The position numbers and the translations under genes were made by a program. DNA of 4,748 nucleotides from a virus (taxonomy: Duplodnaviria; Heunggongvirae; Uroviricota; Caudoviricetes). The notes beneath the pieces are model-generated. The model was not told the DNA's origin. It did not search any database and saw nothing but the letters and a program-made list of their open reading frames with translations. How positions within the stretch are numbered: position 1 is the stretch's first letter; each line of letters begins with the position of its first letter. The stretch is from positions 1 to 4,748 of the IMG/VR virus record IMGVR_UViG_2582580933_000017, one strand, 5' to 3'. Below are positions 1-4,748 of the stretch, one piece after another.

Positions 1-99
1 TTCCGCTTCTTCTGCTGGCAGTACAACGTTGCTACCAGGTCCGTATGTTTCGCGCCACTGCTTGATTGTCAGTAGTCGCTCTTTGGTAATAGTGATCAT
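1..99 (-). CDS. hypothetical protein, N-terminal fragment (gene continues beyond the left edge)
   Basis: Minus-strand ATG at 99..97 overlaps the TGA stop (98..96) of the upstream gene (ATGA). A purine-rich AAGGAA lies about 8 nt upstream. The frame stays open for 33 codons to position 1 (MITITKERLLTIKQWRETYGPGSNVVLPAEEAE...). No family recognised. Confidence 0.45.
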   Translation of the reverse strand, partial: MITITKERLLTIKQWRETYGPGSNVVLPAEEAE

Positions 100-611
100 G
101 CCGCGTTTCCTTCTTTCTTATTAACAATTACACCGTCATATATTTCATTAAGGTGCCCTCTCAACTCCATGCGCCTTAATGCAGATAACATGTAATCGCA
201 TTCAACCTGCTTATTTCCAGTAAATGGCTTATCGTCAGGATTACCCCAACAGCAATTACCCTTGGGCCACCCATGTACTTTCCGTACTCTTCCGTTAACA
301 ACGTGAAGTAATCCCCAGCCAGGTGGTAAATCCTCAACTGAAATAATTCCCGGCTCACTAATAAAGAATCGCCAGTCGCCCATTCCAAGAGATGGATTTT
401 TACGAAAACGCTTTTTTCTATCTGCCAACAAGTCAGCACGAGAACACTTCGCCTCTATCAGGCATGATGCTGAATTTCTGAATCCCATAGCATCTGGCTG
501 TTCTCCGGTACTGGTTACAGCTATAAAGCGGTCATGAAAACAAACCTTGAACCCGTTGCGCTTAAGGAACTTATACGCAATCTGACAGAGTTCGCGGTGT
601 GTTAACGCCAT
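96..611 (-). CDS. PD-(D/E)xK nuclease-fold protein (restriction-endonuclease-like), 171 aa
   Basis: ORF-track frame 96..683, trimmed to the ATG at 611..609, which has an AAGGAGAG Shine-Dalgarno 4 nt upstream and sits 1 nt after the upstream stop (TGATATG). The protein (MALTHRELCQIAYKFLKRNGFKVCFHDRFIAVTSTGEQPDAMGFRNSASCLIEAKCS...) has a helix-then-strands N-terminus and a PD...(E)xK signature (QPD followed 12 residues later by EAK). Fold call is by motif only. Confidence 0.7.
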   Translation of the reverse strand: MALTHRELCQIAYKFLKRNGFKVCFHDRFIAVTSTGEQPDAMGFRNSASCLIEAKCSRADLLADRKKRFRKNPSLGMGDWRFFISEPGIISVEDLPPGWGLLHVVNGRVRKVHGWPKGNCCWGNPDDKPFTGNKQVECDYMLSALRRMELRGHLNEIYDGVIVNKKEGNAA

Positions 612-612
612 A

Positions 613-801
613 TCACTCTCCTTTAGTGCGCAAGTGGTTTTTCCAGCGGTTTTGCGCCGCGCTGGGCTTTTTGCAAAAACCACAATCCATCATCCCGTAA
701 TATTTCATCAACCCCATCCGTCGGTTGCTGAGTCTCACCCACTGCCAGACGCCAGGAGCGTTTCTACGAACTAACAGAATCTTTGCTTTACGGTTTTTCA
801 T
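613..801 (-). CDS. small basic hypothetical protein, 62 aa (MKNRKAK family, copy 1)
   Basis: ORF-track ORF. Its ATG (801..799) overlaps the stop of the upstream paralogue (ATGA). Its C-terminus ...RTKGE is encoded by AAAGGAGAG, which doubles as the Shine-Dalgarno for the next gene. Lys/Arg-rich. Paralogous to 798..974. Confidence 0.55.
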   Translation of the reverse strand: MKNRKAKILLVRRNAPGVWQWVRLSNRRMGLMKYYGMMDCGFCKKPSAAQNRWKNHLRTKGE

Positions 802-802
802 C
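782..802. repeat. 21-bp near-exact direct repeat (copy 1) at the start of the MKNRKAK paralogues; second copy at 955..975
   Basis: TTACGGTTTTTCATC is identical at 788..802 and 961..975, extended by TTTGC(T/C) upstream (1 mismatch in 21). It corresponds to the ATGAAAAACCGTAA (MKNRK) starts of the two tandem paralogues on the minus strand. Confidence 0.75.
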
Positions 803-974
803 TTACAGCGTACCCTTTCTTCCGCCTGTTCTGTGACGCAGTAGGCTTACGCTTTGCGGCAAAAGCCACCTGACCAAATGGATGGAGTACCGCTATCTTA
901 TGGTTGCTAATAACCAGCTCCACCACACGCACAGGTCGCTGTAAAAAAAGTCGTTTTGCCTTACGGTTTTTCAT
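798..974 (-). CDS. small basic hypothetical protein, 58 aa (MKNRKAK family, copy 2)
   Basis: Not in the ORF track (below cutoff); found by manual translation: MKNRKAKRLFLQRPVRVVELVISNHKIAVLHPFGQVAFAAKRKPTASQNRRKKGYAVR. ATG at 974..972 with AGGAGA 8 nt upstream; stop TGA at 800..798. Shares the N-terminal MKNRKAK and the C-terminal KP(T/S)A(S/A)QNR(R/W)K motif with the 613..801 product. The DNA has a matching 15-bp exact repeat at both start sites. Confidence 0.5.
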   Translation of the reverse strand: MKNRKAKRLFLQRPVRVVELVISNHKIAVLHPFGQVAFAAKRKPTASQNRRKKGYAVR

Positions 975-1147
975 CGCTTTGCTCTCCTGCGTCTCTTTGC
1001 TGCTCGTCGTGCCGCTGCAATACCGGTATGGCGGCGCTTTGGTGCTGGGGTGATGTTGTCAGCCATCAGGACCTGTGGCTTTGCAATTAGCGCAGAAGCC
1101 CAAAAACGAGTCGGGTACGGTAACAAGCCGATACATGCCACACGCAT
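971..1147 (-). CDS. small hypothetical protein, 58 aa, with a poly-Arg/Lys C-terminal tail
   Basis: Not in the ORF track; found by manual translation: MRVACIGLLPYPTRFWASALIAKPQVLMADNITPAPKRRHTGIAAARRAAKRRRRAKR. ATG at 1147..1145 with a canonical AAGGAGG Shine-Dalgarno 6 nt upstream, overlapping the upstream TAA (TAATG). Stop TGA at 973..971 overlaps the next ATG (ATGA). It fills what would otherwise look like a 170-bp intergenic gap. An internal in-frame ATG at 1066 is an alternative start. Confidence 0.45.
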   Translation of the reverse strand: MRVACIGLLPYPTRFWASALIAKPQVLMADNITPAPKRRHTGIAAARRAAKRRRRAKR

Positions 1148-1635
1148 TACTCACCTCCTTTGATGCGAATGCCTGTTGCAATGCTGTTTATGATGCTGTC
1201 AGTGCATGGGGTAGAAAGCTGGGCATCTCCAGCAATTTTCATGACATCAACATCTGCATATCGAATACCGAGGTGTATCAGACCGGCTATACCTGACTTA
1301 AGCCGAGCATTTTCCATAAACAGATCCTTTGCCCGCTGTTTTTCTGCCTCAAGCTCAACGCGCAACTTCCCTACCGTTAGCGCAATATCCTCGTTCTCCT
1401 GATCGCGGGATTTGATGTATTGCTGGTTTCTTTCCCGTTCATCCAGTAGTGCCAGCACGGTTTCTGGTCCGGCCAGAAATTTGAAGGCGTTGAGCGCATC
1501 AATATCCACACCGTAATCTTTAAGTTCCTGTTCACTTAACAAATCATCATCAGCTGGCAACATTAACAGGCGTTCCATTGCTGGAATTGCACGTTCCGCC
1601 GCCTCACGCAGTGCCTGATAGTCAATCTTGCTCAC
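1147..1635 (-). CDS. coiled-coil phage protein, resembles the Ead/Ea22-like family (from memory, unverified)
   Basis: ORF-track ORF of 162 aa. GTG start at 1635..1633 preceded by AAGGAGGCAACCA, overlapping the upstream stop (GTGA). N-terminus SKIDYQALREAAERA and a charged coiled-coil-like middle (ERERNQQYIKSRDQENEDIALTVGKLRVELEAEKQRAKDL). C-terminus ...IKGGE is encoded by AAAGGAGGTGAG, which gives the Shine-Dalgarno for the next gene. Confidence 0.65.
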   Translation of the reverse strand: MSKIDYQALREAAERAIPAMERLLMLPADDDLLSEQELKDYGVDIDALNAFKFLAGPETVLALLDERERNQQYIKSRDQENEDIALTVGKLRVELEAEKQRAKDLFMENARLKSGIAGLIHLGIRYADVDVMKIAGDAQLSTPCTDSIINSIATGIRIKGGE

Positions 1636-1648
1636 TGGTTGCCTCCTT
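1631..1648. repeat. 18-bp exact direct repeat (copy 1) at a gene junction; second copy at 1951..1968
   Basis: CTCACTGGTTGCCTCCTT occurs at 1631..1648 and 1951..1968, with imperfect similarity for about 19 more bp (13 of 19 match). On the minus strand each copy encodes the end of one gene (GGNQ stop), an AAGGAGG Shine-Dalgarno and the GTG start of the next. Confidence 0.8.
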
Positions 1649-1955
1649 TTCGAAGCTGGGCGGCGATATCTTCGAGAACGCCATCAGAGAATGAGCGGTC
1701 AAAATCGCCTTCCGGCGCATTAGCCATAAACTCAGTAGAGGTAAGAATCATCCGGGCAATATCCGCGGCGTTCTTCGCGGTATCATCAATAAAACCAGCT
1801 TCCCAGGCAGCCAGCATTCTGTTCGCCACAAAATAAGCGCCTTCCTTGCGTGCTTCAGTCTTCACTTCAGCTAGAAAAGCATCGGTATGGCAATGGAATG
1901 AGGCGTTATTACCCACAATTTCACGCAAGCACATCATGTAAAAACGGTTACTCAC
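1632..1955 (-). CDS. hypothetical protein, 107 aa
   Basis: ORF-track frame 1632..1991, trimmed to the GTG at 1955..1953, which has the same AAGGAGGCAACCAGTGAG context as the next gene and overlaps the upstream stop (GTGA). The ATG at 1991 has only a poorly spaced GGGAG and would overlap the upstream gene by about 40 nt. C-terminus ...IAAQLRKGGNQ is shared with the 1952..2191 product. Confidence 0.6.
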   Translation of the reverse strand: MSNRFYMMCLREIVGNNASFHCHTDAFLAEVKTEARKEGAYFVANRMLAAWEAGFIDDTAKNAADIARMILTSTEFMANAPEGDFDRSFSDGVLEDIAAQLRKGGNQ

Positions 1956-1968
1956 TGGTTGCCTCCTT
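1951..1968. repeat. 18-bp exact direct repeat (copy 2) at a gene junction
   Basis: Same sequence as 1631..1648; see that entry. Confidence 0.8.
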
Positions 1969-2191
1969 GGCGGAGTTGCGCTGCGATGCATGAAAAAAAA
2001 GACTCCCGAGTGTGACAGTTAAGAGCTGGTGCGAACGCCGCGTTAAGAACGGCGGCATCACAGCCGTCATCAATATAGAGCGCAATTTTTTTCTCCAGGC
2101 GCGCTTTGGCTTCCTGCAACTGCATACCCCGGCACGCACGCGGGATATAATCAGCAATTTGAGCGATAGCTTTTTCGTTCTGTTTAAACAT
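1952..2191 (-). CDS. hypothetical protein, 79 aa
   Basis: ORF-track ORF. ATG at 2191..2189 with GAGGTG 4 nt upstream, overlapping the end of the upstream gene by 8 nt. C-terminus ...IAAQLRQGGNQ; its last codons CAAGGAGGCAACCAGTGA carry the Shine-Dalgarno and GTG start of the next gene. Confidence 0.55.
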   Translation of the reverse strand: MFKQNEKAIAQIADYIPRACRGMQLQEAKARLEKKIALYIDDGCDAAVLNAAFAPALNCHTRESFFSCIAAQLRQGGNQ

Positions 2192-2387
2192 GCTTCACCT
2201 CGATAGGCTTGATGGTGTCTAACAGCAGTCGGCGGCGCGTATTTTCTGCAAAATGGCGGCGTCCAGTTTCTTTGTGGTAAAACTCGTTTTTGCCAACGAC
2301 CCACATCCGCTCTGTTTGGTGCAGTTTTTTTACCTTCGGGCCATCTTTGGTGATCACGGTACCGGTATGGGTTTTTACGATTGTCAT
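2184..2387 (-). CDS. hypothetical protein, 67 aa
   Basis: ORF-track ORF. ATG at 2387..2385 overlaps the TGA of the PAPS-reductase-like gene (ATGA), with GAAGAGG upstream. Basic protein (MTIVKTHTGTVITKDGPKVKKLHQTERMWVVGKNEFYHKETGRRHF...). No family recognised. Confidence 0.55.
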   Translation of the reverse strand: MTIVKTHTGTVITKDGPKVKKLHQTERMWVVGKNEFYHKETGRRHFAENTRRRLLLDTIKPIEVKHV

Positions 2388-3262
2388 TCCACTACCTCTT
2401 CGAATTTCAACTCCAATTGGTCACCCCAGATTTCACATGATTCGGAACACGAACCAGTATCAAACCGCTTGGCCAGCACCATCGCCTGATACAAATTTCT
2501 GTAGTCACTGTCGGCATACATTCTGGCAATCCCGTCAAGCGTCAGGTGGCCACGGTACATAACGTCTTTACCTGTTCTGCGATGACCATCCCTGACGTGT
2601 TTGCCTGTAACCAGTTCATTAAAAACCCGCATCAGACCTGGTTCGTCTTTACATGCAAGCCCCAGCTTTTGCGTTGACTTTTTGATGCAAAAAACACAGT
2701 TCCCGAGGTGCTCCGGGATTTGCAAATCAAAAGGTTGTTTTCGCCACCACCGGATAACATCCGACTTATCAAAATCTGACAGTTCGGCAAGATACCGGAC
2801 GCCCGGTTTCGGTTTCAGCCTACGGGGTTCGTCCGCACGAATACCCAGCCATGTGATGTAATTCCCTCGCCCAAAATGGTCATCGCAATATTTCGTGAAA
2901 GGGGTGAGTTTTAGCCTGTCAGTACAGAACGCGCCGCCGATGTATGGCGTACCGTACTTTTTAACCATGTCCATAAACGGTTTAAGCACCGGCATTCGCG
3001 TCTGAATATCCTTTGGTTCCCATTCCGTATAACCATTTGGCTGCCCAATTTCTGGATTTATATCGACCTGCAACACCGTTAGCGGTACGTTCCAGAACTT
3101 CACAACCTCACGAATAAAGCGATACGTCAGAGGATGTTCACAGCCGGTATCCATAAAAATGAAATGGACGCTAGCGCCAGCTTTTCGCTGTGCTTCCATC
3201 AGATGAACGAGATAAGCCGATGTTCGTCCACCTGAAAAGCTGACGACTTGATGCATACTCAC
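2384..3262 (-). CDS. phosphoadenosine phosphosulfate (PAPS) reductase family protein, PP-loop ATP pyrophosphatase fold (CysH/DndC-like)
   Basis: ORF-track ORF of 292 aa. N-terminal PP-loop VVSFSGGRTSAY (SGGxxS). The stretch FMDTGCEHPLTYRFIREV matches the CysH-family DTG...ETYRFI region. C-terminal cysteines (GNCVFC and GSCSESC) could bind a metal or Fe-S cluster. Start is GTG at 3262 (AGGA 7 nt upstream) or ATG at 3256; both in frame. Confidence 0.85.
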   Translation of the reverse strand: MSMHQVVSFSGGRTSAYLVHLMEAQRKAGASVHFIFMDTGCEHPLTYRFIREVVKFWNVPLTVLQVDINPEIGQPNGYTEWEPKDIQTRMPVLKPFMDMVKKYGTPYIGGAFCTDRLKLTPFTKYCDDHFGRGNYITWLGIRADEPRRLKPKPGVRYLAELSDFDKSDVIRWWRKQPFDLQIPEHLGNCVFCIKKSTQKLGLACKDEPGLMRVFNELVTGKHVRDGHRRTGKDVMYRGHLTLDGIARMYADSDYRNLYQAMVLAKRFDTGSCSESCEIWGDQLELKFEEVVE

Positions 3263-3265
3263 GGT

Positions 3266-3844
3266 TTATTCCTGAATGCGCTTAAACTCGATTACCCATA
3301 CCAACGGGTTAGATAGCCAGTTATCCTGCCCGTAAATACTGCGCCAGATATCACCAAAACCAACGCGATAAACAGCTTCAGATGGCGTAATCTTGTACGT
3401 CGCCGGAGTTGCGCCTTCTGCTTTAGCATCTGCCTCGCTCATGTCATGCAGCCGTTCCACACGCACGTCGGTAATTTCCAGAAGAATGCGCGATGCCCAG
3501 CGCGGCATGTGAATTGATGGCGTCCACTTTTCTGATACTGGTTTATTACAAACCTCGACCGGAACCCGGTGCGTTTGTTCTGTCCAGGAGTTACGCACGC
3601 TTGCGCGATAAACCAGCGTTGCGACGTCCGTCGCTTTGCCATGTACCCGGTAGGTTTCGCGAACCCAAATACGATCGCCCGGTTGACCATATGGACAATG
3701 CTTGGCAAGCAACTCTGCGGCCACTGCCCGTCCATAGAATTTTTCTTCAACAATCCTGCGAGTCTGTGTTTTATTCCCGCCAAGAATTGCCCGGACCATC
3801 TCATCGTTAAAAATCATGCCGCGCTCTTTCACTTCGCCTTTCAT
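3266..3844 (-). CDS. ASCH-domain protein (PUA-like fold), YqfB-like ends with a large internal insertion
   Basis: ORF-track ORF of 192 aa. N-terminal ILGGNKTQTRR matches the ASCH GxKxxExR-type motif (recalled E. coli YqfB: ILAGRKTITIRD). C-terminal VWVIEFKRI matches the YqfB end FYVIEFKCL. ATG at 3844 has an AAGGGGGA Shine-Dalgarno; an alternative in-frame start is the ATG at 3817 (MIFNDEM...), where the ASCH alignment begins. Confidence 0.75.
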   Translation of the reverse strand: MKGEVKERGMIFNDEMVRAILGGNKTQTRRIVEEKFYGRAVAAELLAKHCPYGQPGDRIWVRETYRVHGKATDVATLVYRASVRNSWTEQTHRVPVEVCNKPVSEKWTPSIHMPRWASRILLEITDVRVERLHDMSEADAKAEGATPATYKITPSEAVYRVGFGDIWRSIYGQDNWLSNPLVWVIEFKRIQE

Positions 3845-3853
3845 ACATCCCCC

Positions 3854-3940
3854 TTACCCATGTGCGACGATGCCGCCAAAAGTGATAGAGAACAGCCAGA
3901 AATAGATCGCGGCCATAATGATTTTGAATGCCGTGTTCAT
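3854..3940 (-). CDS. small hydrophobic (single predicted transmembrane helix) peptide, 28 aa
   Basis: Not in the ORF track; found by manual translation: MNTAFKIIMAAIYFWLFSITFGGIVAHG. ATG at 3940..3938 with AGGAG 8 nt upstream (3953..3949). Stop TAA at 3856..3854; its last codons plus GGGGGA form the Shine-Dalgarno of the ASCH gene 9 nt downstream. Confidence 0.45.
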   Translation of the reverse strand: MNTAFKIIMAAIYFWLFSITFGGIVAHG

Positions 3941-3967
3941 ATTTTCAGCTCCTGTGATTGATTGGAT

Positions 3968-3999
3968 ACATGCCGCGCCTTGCGGCATGTTTTAATTTT
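3968..3999 (+). terminator. plus-strand-oriented intrinsic-terminator-like hairpin (also a perfect palindrome that could be an operator)
   Basis: Perfect 9-bp inverted repeat ACATGCCGC (3968..3976) / GCGGCATGT (3982..3990) with loop GCCTT, followed on the plus strand by TTTAATTTTC. No T-tract follows it on the minus strand. It lies in the gap between the HAD gene stop (4039) and the small-peptide Shine-Dalgarno (3953). Confidence 0.4.
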
Positions 4000-4023
4000 C
4001 ACTTTCTCTGTTTTAAAAATCAA
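3995..4023 (-). promoter_or_regulatory. candidate sigma70-type promoter for the minus-strand genes downstream
   Basis: On the minus strand: TTGATT (4023..4018), a 17-nt AT-rich spacer, then GAAAAT (4000..3995). This would start transcription at or inside the palindrome at 3968..3990. Weak consensus match (4/6 and 4/6); not verified. Confidence 0.25.
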
Positions 4024-4038
4024 GATTTATTAGAGCAA

Positions 4039-4545
4039 TTATTGTTGATGAAGAAGTGCATTTTCATATTCCCTGACCATTAACGTAAGTACGCCGTGAC
4101 TCCTGAAAACACGCGCCACTTCAATCTTATCTTCCAGCGCGAACGCAATTTTACTTAGACCAATTTTCTTCAGGAGATCAATCTTTGCAGGGCCGTCATT
4201 TCTGTCATCGGTGGCAGGACGCATAGATAGCAAAGGCTCAGCCCCATTTGTTACGTGCTTACGCAGCCAGGCTCGTGTTTTATCCCTTGCGATCTCACAG
4301 CGCCCGGTTACAAACCAGACCGTGTAAACGTTAAATAACTGGCGCACCATATCAATAACCGGAGTGATGGGAGTATCGGTGTCACAGGCGAGATTAAACT
4401 CGTTCCAGTCCTTTGTTAATGCACCTTTACCTGGTGGCGGAAGCAAATGCAGTCTGTCTTCAGTTGCCTCTGATATTGTTCCATCAATATCGACTATGAC
4501 GATATACGGACGTTCCTGGTGTGCGTGTTTATTGAAAATACTCAA
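4039..4545 (-). CDS. HAD-superfamily phosphatase (nucleotidase or polynucleotide 3'-phosphatase-like)
   Basis: ORF-track ORF of 168 aa. HAD motif I IVIVDIDGT (DxDGT) near the N-terminus and a motif II-like VWFVTGR. Start is TTG at 4545..4543 with a GAGGAGGG Shine-Dalgarno 3-4 nt upstream; there is no in-frame ATG further upstream. Confidence 0.75.
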   Translation of the reverse strand: MSIFNKHAHQERPYIVIVDIDGTISEATEDRLHLLPPPGKGALTKDWNEFNLACDTDTPITPVIDMVRQLFNVYTVWFVTGRCEIARDKTRAWLRKHVTNGAEPLLSMRPATDDRNDGPAKIDLLKKIGLSKIAFALEDKIEVARVFRSHGVLTLMVREYENALLHQQ

Positions 4546-4563
4546 ATGCCCTCCTCATTGGAC

Positions 4564-4598
4564 GAAAAAAATGCTGGTGGGCGCACTCCACCAGCATT
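4564..4598 (-). terminator. rho-independent terminator, minus-strand orientation
   Basis: Perfect 11-bp inverted repeat AATGCTGGTGG (4570..4580) / CCACCAGCATT (4588..4598) with a 7-nt loop. On the minus strand it is followed by a run of 7 T (plus-strand A-run 4564..4570). It lies between the stop of the upstream partial gene (4618) and the HAD Shine-Dalgarno (4556..4549). Confidence 0.65.
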
Positions 4599-4617
4599 AA
4601 AAGTGACACTGTAACTA

Positions 4618-4748
4618 TCAGCGGACGTAAATAGTGCCGCCGTTCTCTTTTTCCCATGCATCGCTACGTGCATAGCAAACATCGAGAAGTCTTCTTGCCG
4701 CTGTTTCCTCTAAACCCAATTCGACAACCAACTGCTCATGACGGCGGG
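4618..4748 (-). CDS. hypothetical protein, C-terminal fragment (gene begins beyond the right edge)
   Basis: Minus-strand frame open from the window edge for 42 codons (...RRHEQLVVELGLEETAARRLLDVCYARSDAWEKENGGTIYVR) to TGA at 4620..4618, just upstream of the terminator. No family recognised. Confidence 0.45.
   Translation of the reverse strand, partial: RRHEQLVVELGLEETAARRLLDVCYARSDAWEKENGGTIYVR

Follow-up and report, generated by a model that had tools for sequence, protein, structure and literature searches.

The 4,748-nucleotide (nt) stretch analyzed here, positions 1 to 4,748 of the IMG/VR virus record IMGVR_UViG_2582580933_000017 (hereafter the window), carries four adjacent minus-strand genes between positions 2384 and 4545: pap, encoding a HAD phosphatase; a small open reading frame (ORF) for a hydrophobic peptide of 28 amino acids (aa); pmgT, encoding an ASCH protein; and ninC, encoding a PP-loop protein. 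An initial annotation had read these genes as one co-transcribed candidate module for nucleic-acid modification or counter-defense. Our analysis favors a different reading, to which we assign a probability of about 0.65: the block is a seam at which the backbone of a P1-type phage-plasmid meets a variable slot for early-gene cargo, and not one system. It represents ordinary phage mosaicism of known, named, functionally uncharacterized genes. The value of the analysis lies in two testable re-annotations, of NinC and of PmgT, and in one weak signal of adjacency between ASCH genes and ninC.

A proposed seam of P1 backbone and exchangeable cargo within the block

The window matched P1, P7, RCS47 and JL22 in the phage collection, together with more than 1,400 plasmids, mostly non-mobilizable and from Escherichia coli or Salmonella, and we therefore assigned it to a P1-type phage-plasmid. 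Of the plasmids, 15 span 80% or more of the window, and identity is at least 99% in 13 records. Positions 3753–4748 are P1 backbone, with 95% identity to the P1 reference; positions 3410–4748 are common to P7 and JL22; positions 2381–3520 are common to plasmids of the pCR-0268_3 type; and positions 1948–3261 share 92.6% nt identity with the Shiga toxin (Stx)-type phage Ss-VASD, in synteny with the ninC of that phage. Homology to Ss-VASD stops at 3261, which is the start of ninC. The pmgT gene is itself a mosaic, being P7/JL22-like at 3410–3844 and common to pCR-0268_3-type plasmids at 3266–3520. In Stx-type phages, ninC is accompanied by the 67-aa and 79-aa ORFs also seen in the window and by a gene of the Ea22 family, and both the ASCH and the HAD gene are missing; judged by sequence similarity, the immediate donor of ninC looks like the 'ea' region of such phages.

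The cargo on the 3' side of pmgT varies among related elements: P1 has pmgU and pmgV, P7 has Upf87.4 and the phosphatase-like Upf87.6, JL22 has an adenine methyltransferase, and MH422554 has a RecT fragment. We propose that whatever follows pmgT would be exchangeable, the cargo here being the lambda ninC orthologue plus ea-type genes from an Stx or lambdoid phage. In the literature on P1-like phage-plasmids, the region after pap is known as 'variable region 8'. Since its genes are named (P1 pap, P1 pmgT or P7 upf86.8, lambda ninC) and lie in a published region, the earlier remark that this combination had not been described as a system is not supported.

The four ORFs were found on the minus strand where the initial annotation had placed them, and according to the ORF list all substantial ORFs of the window lie on that strand. 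Their order is the 3' end of pmgS, a hairpin, pap, a 98-nt spacer, the 28-aa ORF, pmgT and ninC. The end of the block at 2384 was an arbitrary choice, as the tightly packed string runs on 3' of ninC, without a break, into ORFs of 67, 79 and 119 aa and an Ead/Ea22 gene. The sequence motifs quoted for the PP-loop protein (SGGRTS, DTG..TYRFI and C-terminal cysteine pairs) and for the HAD protein (DIDGT) were all present, and the four domain assignments were upheld by Pfam scans and, for the ASCH protein, by fold comparison. The claim of coupled gene junctions stood in part. It is borne out between the peptide and pmgT (a gap of 9 nt), between pmgT and ninC (3–9 nt), and between ninC and the next ORF (an ATGA overlap), but not between pap and the peptide, where the 98-nt spacer contains a C1 operator, two predicted sigma-70 promoters and a strong hairpin.

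A C1 operator and predicted promoters lie between pap and pmgT

The first base of the C1 repressor operator in this spacer, OpmgT (formerly Op88), is the last base (A) of the pap stop codon. The operator is also annotated in P7, as 'Op(hea)', and its match is the sole one in the window, against 0.02 expected by chance. By its sequence, the predicted operator is 17 bp long and asymmetric and overlaps a predicted promoter; it differs by one mismatch from the C1 operator consensus. The promoters were placed by alignment to the annotated P1 reference (97% identity), where they are predictions, not mapped starts. Next comes a conserved GC-rich hairpin, located where the pmgT transcript is predicted to begin or close by. 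A T-run follows it on the opposite strand, and the hairpin shows no variation in P1, P7 and MH422554. The entire 220-nt stretch comprising operator, promoters, hairpin and 28-aa ORF is 97% identical across these three elements and the window.

Because the C1 operator, the predicted promoters and the hairpin sit between them, we regard pap and the downstream genes as two units, and because OpmgT/Op88 and the predicted sigma-70 promoters lie directly at the pap stop codon, the genes after pap would form an operon of their own. Judging from the P1 annotation, this pmgT operon would be silent in the plasmid prophage and induced when C1 is inactivated. It would open with two backbone genes, encoding the 28-aa membrane peptide and a PmgT that has the whole YqfB catalytic set. 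The single co-transcribed cassette of four genes proposed in the initial annotation was not supported, as pap is part of the P1 backbone and an annotated C1 operator and promoter lie between pap and the rest.

The small ORF encodes 28 aa from the ATG at 3940 and 44 aa if started at the ATG at 3988. Its 28-aa product has a mean Kyte–Doolittle hydropathy of 2.1 over residues 7–25. The ORF was present in 22 of the 22 pap-carrying loci that were retrieved, with identical products in 21 and one A-to-S change in the remaining one. JL22 annotates it as the 44-aa gp98, and P1 and P7 leave the 28-aa ORF unannotated. The P1 record reports 96–98% identity between the segment with Op88 and the small ORF and the downstream flanks of two type IC hsd loci, EcoDXXI and R124/3; for the phd-doc segment it reports 98% identity to the upstream flank of EcoDXXI hsd. 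Large conjugative plasmids carry 80-nt matches to the 28-aa ORF. Because of the identities to hsd flanks in the P1 record, with which the 80-nt plasmid matches agree, a type IC restriction-modification system may occupy the same variable slot in some P1-like plasmids.

pap belongs to the backbone

By sequence homology, pap is a P1 backbone gene downstream of pmgS. Its product is 93–97% identical to Pap of P1 and P7, and pap and the peptide are found at a coverage of at least 80% in 591 PLSDB plasmids. Pap matched Pfam HAD_PNKP (46.7 bits against a cut-off of 27.6; E-value 4.5e-12) and phrog_415 (1.7e-57), and HAD motifs I–IV could all be read from the translation: D19xD21GT (DIDGT, residues 19–23), T80, K121 and E138-D139. 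Kinase-phosphatase profiles were matched in their phosphatase portion only (156–292 of 295 in phrog_505; 207–299 in Pnkp1), and the P-loop kinase domain that would make Pap a bifunctional polynucleotide kinase-phosphatase is absent from its 168 aa. We propose that Pap would be a stand-alone HAD phosphatase of the polynucleotide-3'-phosphatase type. A strong hairpin resembling an intrinsic terminator separates pmgS from pap, and expression of pap may thus require read-through or be controlled separately.

The domain genes occur independently of one another

To follow the three domain genes outside the window, we sampled neighborhoods on IMG/VR contigs, with 80 loci per sample and some ASCH loci shared between samples. 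At loci of close ninC relatives, an ASCH gene lay within 8 kb in 7/80 and was absent from 73/80; all seven represent one lineage, with a ninC at least 98% identical to that of the window. Distant ninC loci had an ASCH gene within 6 kb in two cases and none in the other 78. Starting from diverse ASCH loci, ninC was found within 8 kb in 2/80 of a first sample and within 6 kb in 0/80 of a second. A pap-like gene was found at none of the 73 close ninC loci lacking ASCH and at none of the 80 distant ones. All 16 pap matches among 160 ASCH loci came with the P1-backbone 28-aa ORF, and the sampled loci held no pap-like HAD gene near ninC or ASCH outside P1-type elements. In PLSDB, at a coverage of at least 80%, the window ninC is carried by 64 plasmids and the window pmgT allele by 25, the two being adjacent in 13.

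The linkage expected of a cassette was thus not borne out: P7, JL22 and P1 have pap and pmgT without ninC, and lambda and Stx phages have ninC without the ASCH or HAD gene. Independent occurrence of the three domain genes is the outcome that the initial annotation itself had named as speaking against its proposal.

PmgT has an ASCH fold and the catalytic residues of YqfB

Strict Pfam and NCBIfam scans gave no match for PmgT, and comparison of its sequence and of a PmgT family profile with Protein Data Bank (PDB) chains returned nothing meaningful; the fold was therefore determined by AlphaFold2 (AF2) prediction and Foldseek. Pfam ASCH (PF04266) scored 15.3 bits, below its gathering cut-off of 21.2, yet it was the top match, and it was matched by 4/8 members of the PmgT family (best E-value 1.2e-4). 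RefSeq names PmgT homologues 'ASCH domain-containing protein'. The AF2 model, based on 26 homologues, had a predicted local distance difference test score (pLDDT) of 84 and a predicted template modeling score (pTM) of 0.81. In the Foldseek comparison with the PDB, matches 1–16 were all ASCH proteins, with a probability of 0.95–1.0, and included YqfB, PH0355, EF3133, an L. crispatus ASCH protein, PF0455 and ZmASCH. E. coli YqfB (9kyf) ranked first, with a template modeling (TM) score of 0.75–0.77 normalized on YqfB and an E-value of 9e-5.

In this comparison, PmgT G23/K25/T28/R30/E143 align to YqfB G19/K21/T24/R26/E74. Mutagenesis of YqfB has defined a Thr-Lys-Glu triad and an Arg oxyanion hole, and the octapeptide G-x-K-x-x-T-x-R marks the 'GKTR' subgroup of ASCH proteins. 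Among 141 PmgT representatives, which are among the best matches and mutually at most 50% identical, the five residues are 94–99% conserved and the catalytic K25/T28/R30/E143 97–99%. Two family-specific motifs, CPxG..GDxxWVRE and PSIHMPRWASR, are conserved in the same set. With the ASCH fold recovered and the YqfB catalytic set aligned, the initial call of an ASCH protein of YqfB type proved right. By analogy with YqfB, PmgT would most likely hydrolyze an N4-acyl group on cytosine, in the free nucleoside or in RNA or DNA, or act on a related modified base.

PmgT of the window is 84% identical to P7 Upf86.8 and JL22 gp99 and 43% identical to P1 PmgT, with which it has a 21-aa N-terminus in common without a difference. 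The family comprises 42,792 cluster representatives at 50% identity with an E-value of at most 1e-3, and 31,455 at 1e-10 or below. P1 PmgT, labeled 'putative morphogenetic function', thus belongs to an ASCH family of about 43,000 clusters without Pfam coverage, and because this very large family keeps the complete YqfB catalytic set, phages may widely encode hydrolases of the N4-acyl-cytosine type. Many phage contigs of 40–50 kb have the PmgT-type ASCH gene 1–4 kb from the contig end (loci L092–L171 and L252–L331), and a terminal position in the prophage or on the genome map may be typical of it.

One further observation concerns pmgT of the laboratory P1 reference (NC_005856, locus L009, 4489–5418; 309 aa). 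Its product departs from all other family members after '...ANPWV', runs on for some 70 unrelated residues in overlap with pmgU, and has lost the final conserved 'WVIEFKRI' strand. To judge from the alignment, this looks like a frameshift or rearrangement, and reference P1 may therefore carry a defective pmgT.

NinC is a PP-loop protein with conserved cysteines

ninC encodes 292 aa from a GTG codon; the start aligned with lambda is the ATG at 3256. The protein is 80% identical to lambda NinC/Nin290 (lambdap64) over 285 aa without gaps and 95.5% identical to the Ss-VASD protein, and it matched phrog_424 at 5.1e-93. It contains the family signature of SFSGG(R/Q)(T/S)S followed by CxxC and CxxxC, and its C-terminal cysteine pairs are C189xxC192 and C272xxxC276. 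The segments SFSGGRxS, DTGxEH, C113, GNC189xFC192xKK and GSC272SESC276 are invariant, as checked in an alignment of 16 sequences (51–78% identity) and another of eight sequences down to 30%.

The AF2 model of NinC had a pLDDT of 84, with the last 22 residues disordered. Foldseek gave a probability of 1.0 to adenosine phosphosulfate (APS) and phosphoadenosine phosphosulfate (PAPS) reductases, LarE, TtuA, TilS and GMP synthetase; for the nearest folds (APS/PAPS reductase, [4Fe-4S]-LarE, TtuA and TilS), which include sulfur transferases of the Fe-S kind, TM scores were 0.35–0.49 and covered the N-terminal ~180 residues only. A Rossmann-like fold and an N-terminal SGGxxS loop, the hallmarks of the PP-loop ATP pyrophosphatase superfamily, are both present. 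By analogy, NinC is probably a PP-loop ATP pyrophosphatase whose conserved cysteine cluster binds a metal or an Fe-S center. Of the PADLOC profiles, SspD gave the best match (2.1e-13, 48.6 bits), with BrxP at 2e-4 and DndC at 5e-4. The SspD match is partial, aligning NinC 5–148 with profile positions 2–121 of 277, and the window holds no ssp partners. The same scan matched none of the ASCH protein, Pap and the small ORFs. An assignment of NinC to DndC was rejected (TIGR03183, 17.6 against a cut-off of 290.4), and the neighbors of ninC are the ASCH gene, small ORFs and Ea22.

A 294-aa homologue (P0131) matches 79% of the query, the window NinC, at 100% identity and combines PF04448 (DUF551) with PF01507. 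It has the look of ninC fused to, or rearranged with, the DUF551 gene family that belongs to this ea-type cargo.

NinC is related to a Dam fusion protein implicated in escape from Dnd

Protein p0018 of Vibrio phage 44E38.1 (479 aa) is 55% identical to the window NinC at 96% coverage, and NinC of lambda hybrid phages is 59% identical to its first 280 residues. It is annotated as a 'Dam methyltransferase with PAPS reductase domain' and belongs to the anti-Dnd cassette of Piel et al. (2022; preprint 10.1101/2021.05.05.442762). When p0018 and p0019 were moved into a sensitive phage, that phage infected Dnd-carrying Vibrio (10.1101/2021.05.05.442762), and a later paper cites p0018 as a phage PAPS reductase promoting Dnd evasion. 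A paper reappraising phosphorothioation makes no mention of NinC. Only one phage protein has so far been implicated in Dnd escape, and lambda NinC is closely homologous to its PAPS-reductase domain, a relationship that offers a simple test in the best-studied phage.

Fusions of NinC to Dam (PF01507 with PF05869) numbered four among the 120 matches listed (P0214, P0229, P0237 and P0240), and separate, adjacent Dam and NinC genes occur in Salmonella phage Oslo (L333, 2465–3861) and Vibrio phage 1.184.A. A Dam-type N6-adenine methylase is a much more consistent partner of NinC than an ASCH or HAD protein, and a role of NinC together with either of the latter is not indicated. We also compared p0019 with ASCH/PmgT proteins, since homology would make ASCH plus NinC the validated cassette; the two are not homologous.

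The role in counter-defense or DNA modification that the initial annotation envisaged is plausible for the PP-loop protein by itself, given its 55% identity to an anti-Dnd NinC–Dam protein, and fails for the four-gene cassette. NinC is a relative of the sulfur-inserting SspD and DndC, and its most likely role would be DNA-directed counter-defense against phosphorothioate-based (Dnd, Ssp) or related restriction. Homology and the gene fusions suggest that it would work alone or with a Dam-type methylase. That NinC acts on DNA and counters phosphorothioate-dependent restriction is a tentative proposal by analogy, to which we give somewhat less than even odds.

Alternative readings of the block

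Several points weigh against the seam of backbone and cargo, or against the roles that we assign within it. When an ASCH gene and ninC share a sampled neighborhood of 6–8 kb, they are always directly adjacent and on the same strand, and this holds in three independent lineages: that of the P1-type plasmids; L112, where a 51%-identical ASCH gene overlaps a 30%-identical ninC by 4 nt; and L214, a high-GC contig with the order reversed, ninC then ASCH. Chance alone does not comfortably account for three such adjacencies in deeply diverged lineages. The hairpin 3' of pap lacks a T-tail on the coding strand, so transcription might run on from pap into the pmgT operon. P1 PmgT and lambda NinC are non-essential according to CRISPR interference (CRISPRi) and earlier work, and we found no paper assigning a function to either. 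The anti-Dnd transfer involved two genes, including a NinC–Dam fusion, and not the NinC domain alone (10.1101/2021.05.05.442762). The adjacencies might indicate that a PmgT-type ASCH protein and a NinC-type PP-loop protein form a facultative two-gene unit making or editing a modified base, in which one enzyme activates or installs a group and the other trims or reads it, with pap and the peptide as bystanders. If true, such a unit would explain why ASCH and ninC adjoin in three unrelated phage lineages; the catalytic motifs are intact in both proteins, and the 3' 255 nt of pmgT and ninC travel together at 98% identity in P1-type plasmids. However, co-occurrence is rare in the sampled ASCH and distant ninC loci, close relatives of the L112 ninC (80–88%) have no ASCH neighbor, and lambda, P22-like and Stx phages retain ninC without ASCH. 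Most P1-type plasmids carry pmgT without ninC, the gene upstream of the anti-Dnd NinC–Dam protein is not ASCH-like, and just two of the cases are independent of the one that prompted the idea. These counts are too low to carry firm statistics. We judge the two-gene unit unlikely, and slightly more doubtful still that it installs and processes an undescribed base or backbone modification that temperate phages direct against modification-sensing or phosphorothioate-based immunity.

A single co-transcribed modification or counter-defense cassette of pap, peptide, ASCH and PP-loop genes would fit their shared strand and order, the three tight junctions and the presence of three enzymes that plausibly act on nucleotides or nucleic acids. 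It is highly improbable, as the C1 operator/promoter and hairpin separate pap from the rest, pap occurs in about 591 plasmids against 64 for ninC, pap is confined to P1-type loci among the sampled neighborhoods, and the boundary of ninC is a mosaic breakpoint. We give equally little credence to ninC as an auxiliary metabolic gene for a CysH-type PAPS/APS reductase boosting host sulfate assimilation, a reading that draws on the Pfam PAPS_reduct match (2.7e-9), on 'phosphoadenosine phosphosulfate reductase' annotations, on the PHROG category 'moron, auxiliary metabolic gene' and on APS and PAPS reductases as the nearest solved folds. That Pfam match spans residues 6–72 only, the fold similarity is confined to the low TM scores and N-terminal residues given above, and the NCBIfam models for these reductases scored 13–22 bits against cut-offs of 154–254 (TIGR00434, cysH, 14.8 against 165.1; NF002537, PRK02090, 21.8 against 154; TIGR02057, PAPS_reductase, 13.1 against 254.2; TIGR02055, 13.9 against 235.3). 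The C-terminal catalytic cysteine motif of CysH and assimilatory PAPS or APS reductases, ECG(L/I)H, is absent from the 292-aa translation, whose C-terminus reads DTGSCSESCE, and NinC is recurrently fused to Dam DNA methylases; an ordinary sulfate-assimilation CysH, which the initial annotation had named as a refuting outcome, is not what the searches showed. A part of pmgT and its neighbors in virion assembly, the 'putative morphogenetic function', is very unlikely too. It has in its favor the name 'morphogenetic protein' in P1, P7 and UniRef and the location next to pmgR/pmgS (shtA/shtB in P7), but the fold and conserved catalytic residues of PmgT are those of an ASCH hydrolase, pmgT, pmgU, pmgV and pap were scored non-essential for plaque formation by CRISPRi, replacement of pmgT in JL22 was reported to have no effect on lysogenic ability, and unrelated sipho-, podo- and myoviruses carry members of the PmgT family among their early or accessory genes.

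Features at the seam and in the rest of the window

Coordinates of the features on both sides of the seam between backbone and cargo are listed below.

Table 1. Features of the window, in window coordinates (dG, folding free energy).
Feature	Position	Strand	Remarks
pmgS, 3' end	4618..4748	-	P1 backbone gene, truncated at the window edge; homologous to pmgS of P1, P7 and JL22
Terminator-like hairpin between pmgS stop and pap start	4570..4598	-	11-bp stem and T7 run; dG -18.1 kcal/mol, z -3.05
pap	4039..4545	-	stand-alone HAD phosphatase, PNKP 3'-phosphatase type; 168 aa, TTG start
C1 repressor operator OpmgT (former Op88), ATTGCTCTAATAAATCT	4023..4039	-	identical to the operator annotated in P1 NC_005856
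Predicted sigma-70 promoter P2pmgT	-35 at 4038-4033, -10 at 4015-4010	-	
Predicted sigma-70 promoter P1pmgT	-35 at 4023-4018, -10 at 4000-3995	-	
Conserved GC-rich hairpin	3968..3990	-	9-bp stem; dG -18.3 kcal/mol, z -4.28
28-aa hydrophobic ORF, MNTAFKIIMAAIYFWLFSITFGGIVAHG	3854..3940	-	one predicted transmembrane helix; AGGAG 8 nt upstream of ATG
pmgT allele (= P7 upf86.8)	3266..3844	-	ASCH fold, YqfB type with two insertions; 192 aa
ninC orthologue	2384..3262	-	PP-loop ATP-pyrophosphatase fold of the PAPS-reductase/SspD/DndC kind
Lambdoid 'ea'-type cargo string	1147..2387	-	overlapping starts and stops
67-aa ORF	2387..2184	-	
79-aa ORF	2191..1952	-	
119-aa ORF	1991..1632	-	
Ead/Ea22 ORF	1635..1147	-	Pfam Ead_Ea22, 4.6e-33

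The ea-type cargo string matched phrog_1226, phrog_1344 and phrog_14548. Beyond it, positions 613–1147 (minus strand) hold small ORFs of 62, 58 and 58 aa in succession, the first two of which begin with MKNRKAK, and their sequences suggest a local duplication of a small basic protein. A 195-aa ORF at 96–683 (minus strand) matched phrog_9263/631, of unknown function, and contains a D...IEAK segment reminiscent of a PD-(D/E)xK nuclease core. This ORF is common to P7, Stx-type phages and MH422554 at 97–99%.

Comparison with known systems

Pap has its nearest solved relative in Pnkp1 (4xrp), a weak match (E-value 0.006). Polynucleotide kinase-phosphatases have a kinase domain, whereas Pap, with 168 aa, corresponds to the phosphatase alone. 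P1 PmgT and P7 Upf86.8 (phrog_874) occupy the same position as the window gene, directly after Op88 and the 28-aa ORF; the window protein is a shorter allele (192 aa against 241–309 aa) and is without two insertions. YqfB, an N4-acetylcytidine amidohydrolase, shares with PmgT the octapeptide, the triad Glu and the C-terminal VIEFK strand. The two are 14–15% identical in the structural alignment, and PmgT is twice the size of YqfB, with two insertions, absent from YqfB, that contain the near-invariant motifs CPxG..GDxxWVRE and PSIHMPRWASR.

For NinC, the lambda protein (Nin290) is of near-equal size (290 against 292 aa) and shares SFSGGRTS, DTGxEH, GNCxFCxKKS and GSCSESCE; it, too, comes from an accessory gene, scored as non-essential, in a temperate coliphage. 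Lambda ninC lies between ninB and ninD in the nin region, whereas the window ninC follows pmgT in a P1-type plasmid. The resemblance to SspD, DndC and BrxP lies in the PP-loop N-terminal half of NinC, the SspD profile having 277 positions against 292 aa. In this comparison, the conserved cysteines of NinC are compatible with a metal or Fe-S site, whereas the partners found in Dnd and Ssp loci (a cysteine desulfurase, a DndD/SspC ATPase and DndE/SspB) have no equivalent near the window ninC. As for 44E38.1, p0019 has no counterpart in the window, and p0018 carries a C-terminal Dam methylase domain that the window NinC lacks. Both p0018, which lies in the early region, and the window ninC are phage accessory genes, and p0018 keeps all the conserved cysteines and PP-loop motifs of the window NinC.

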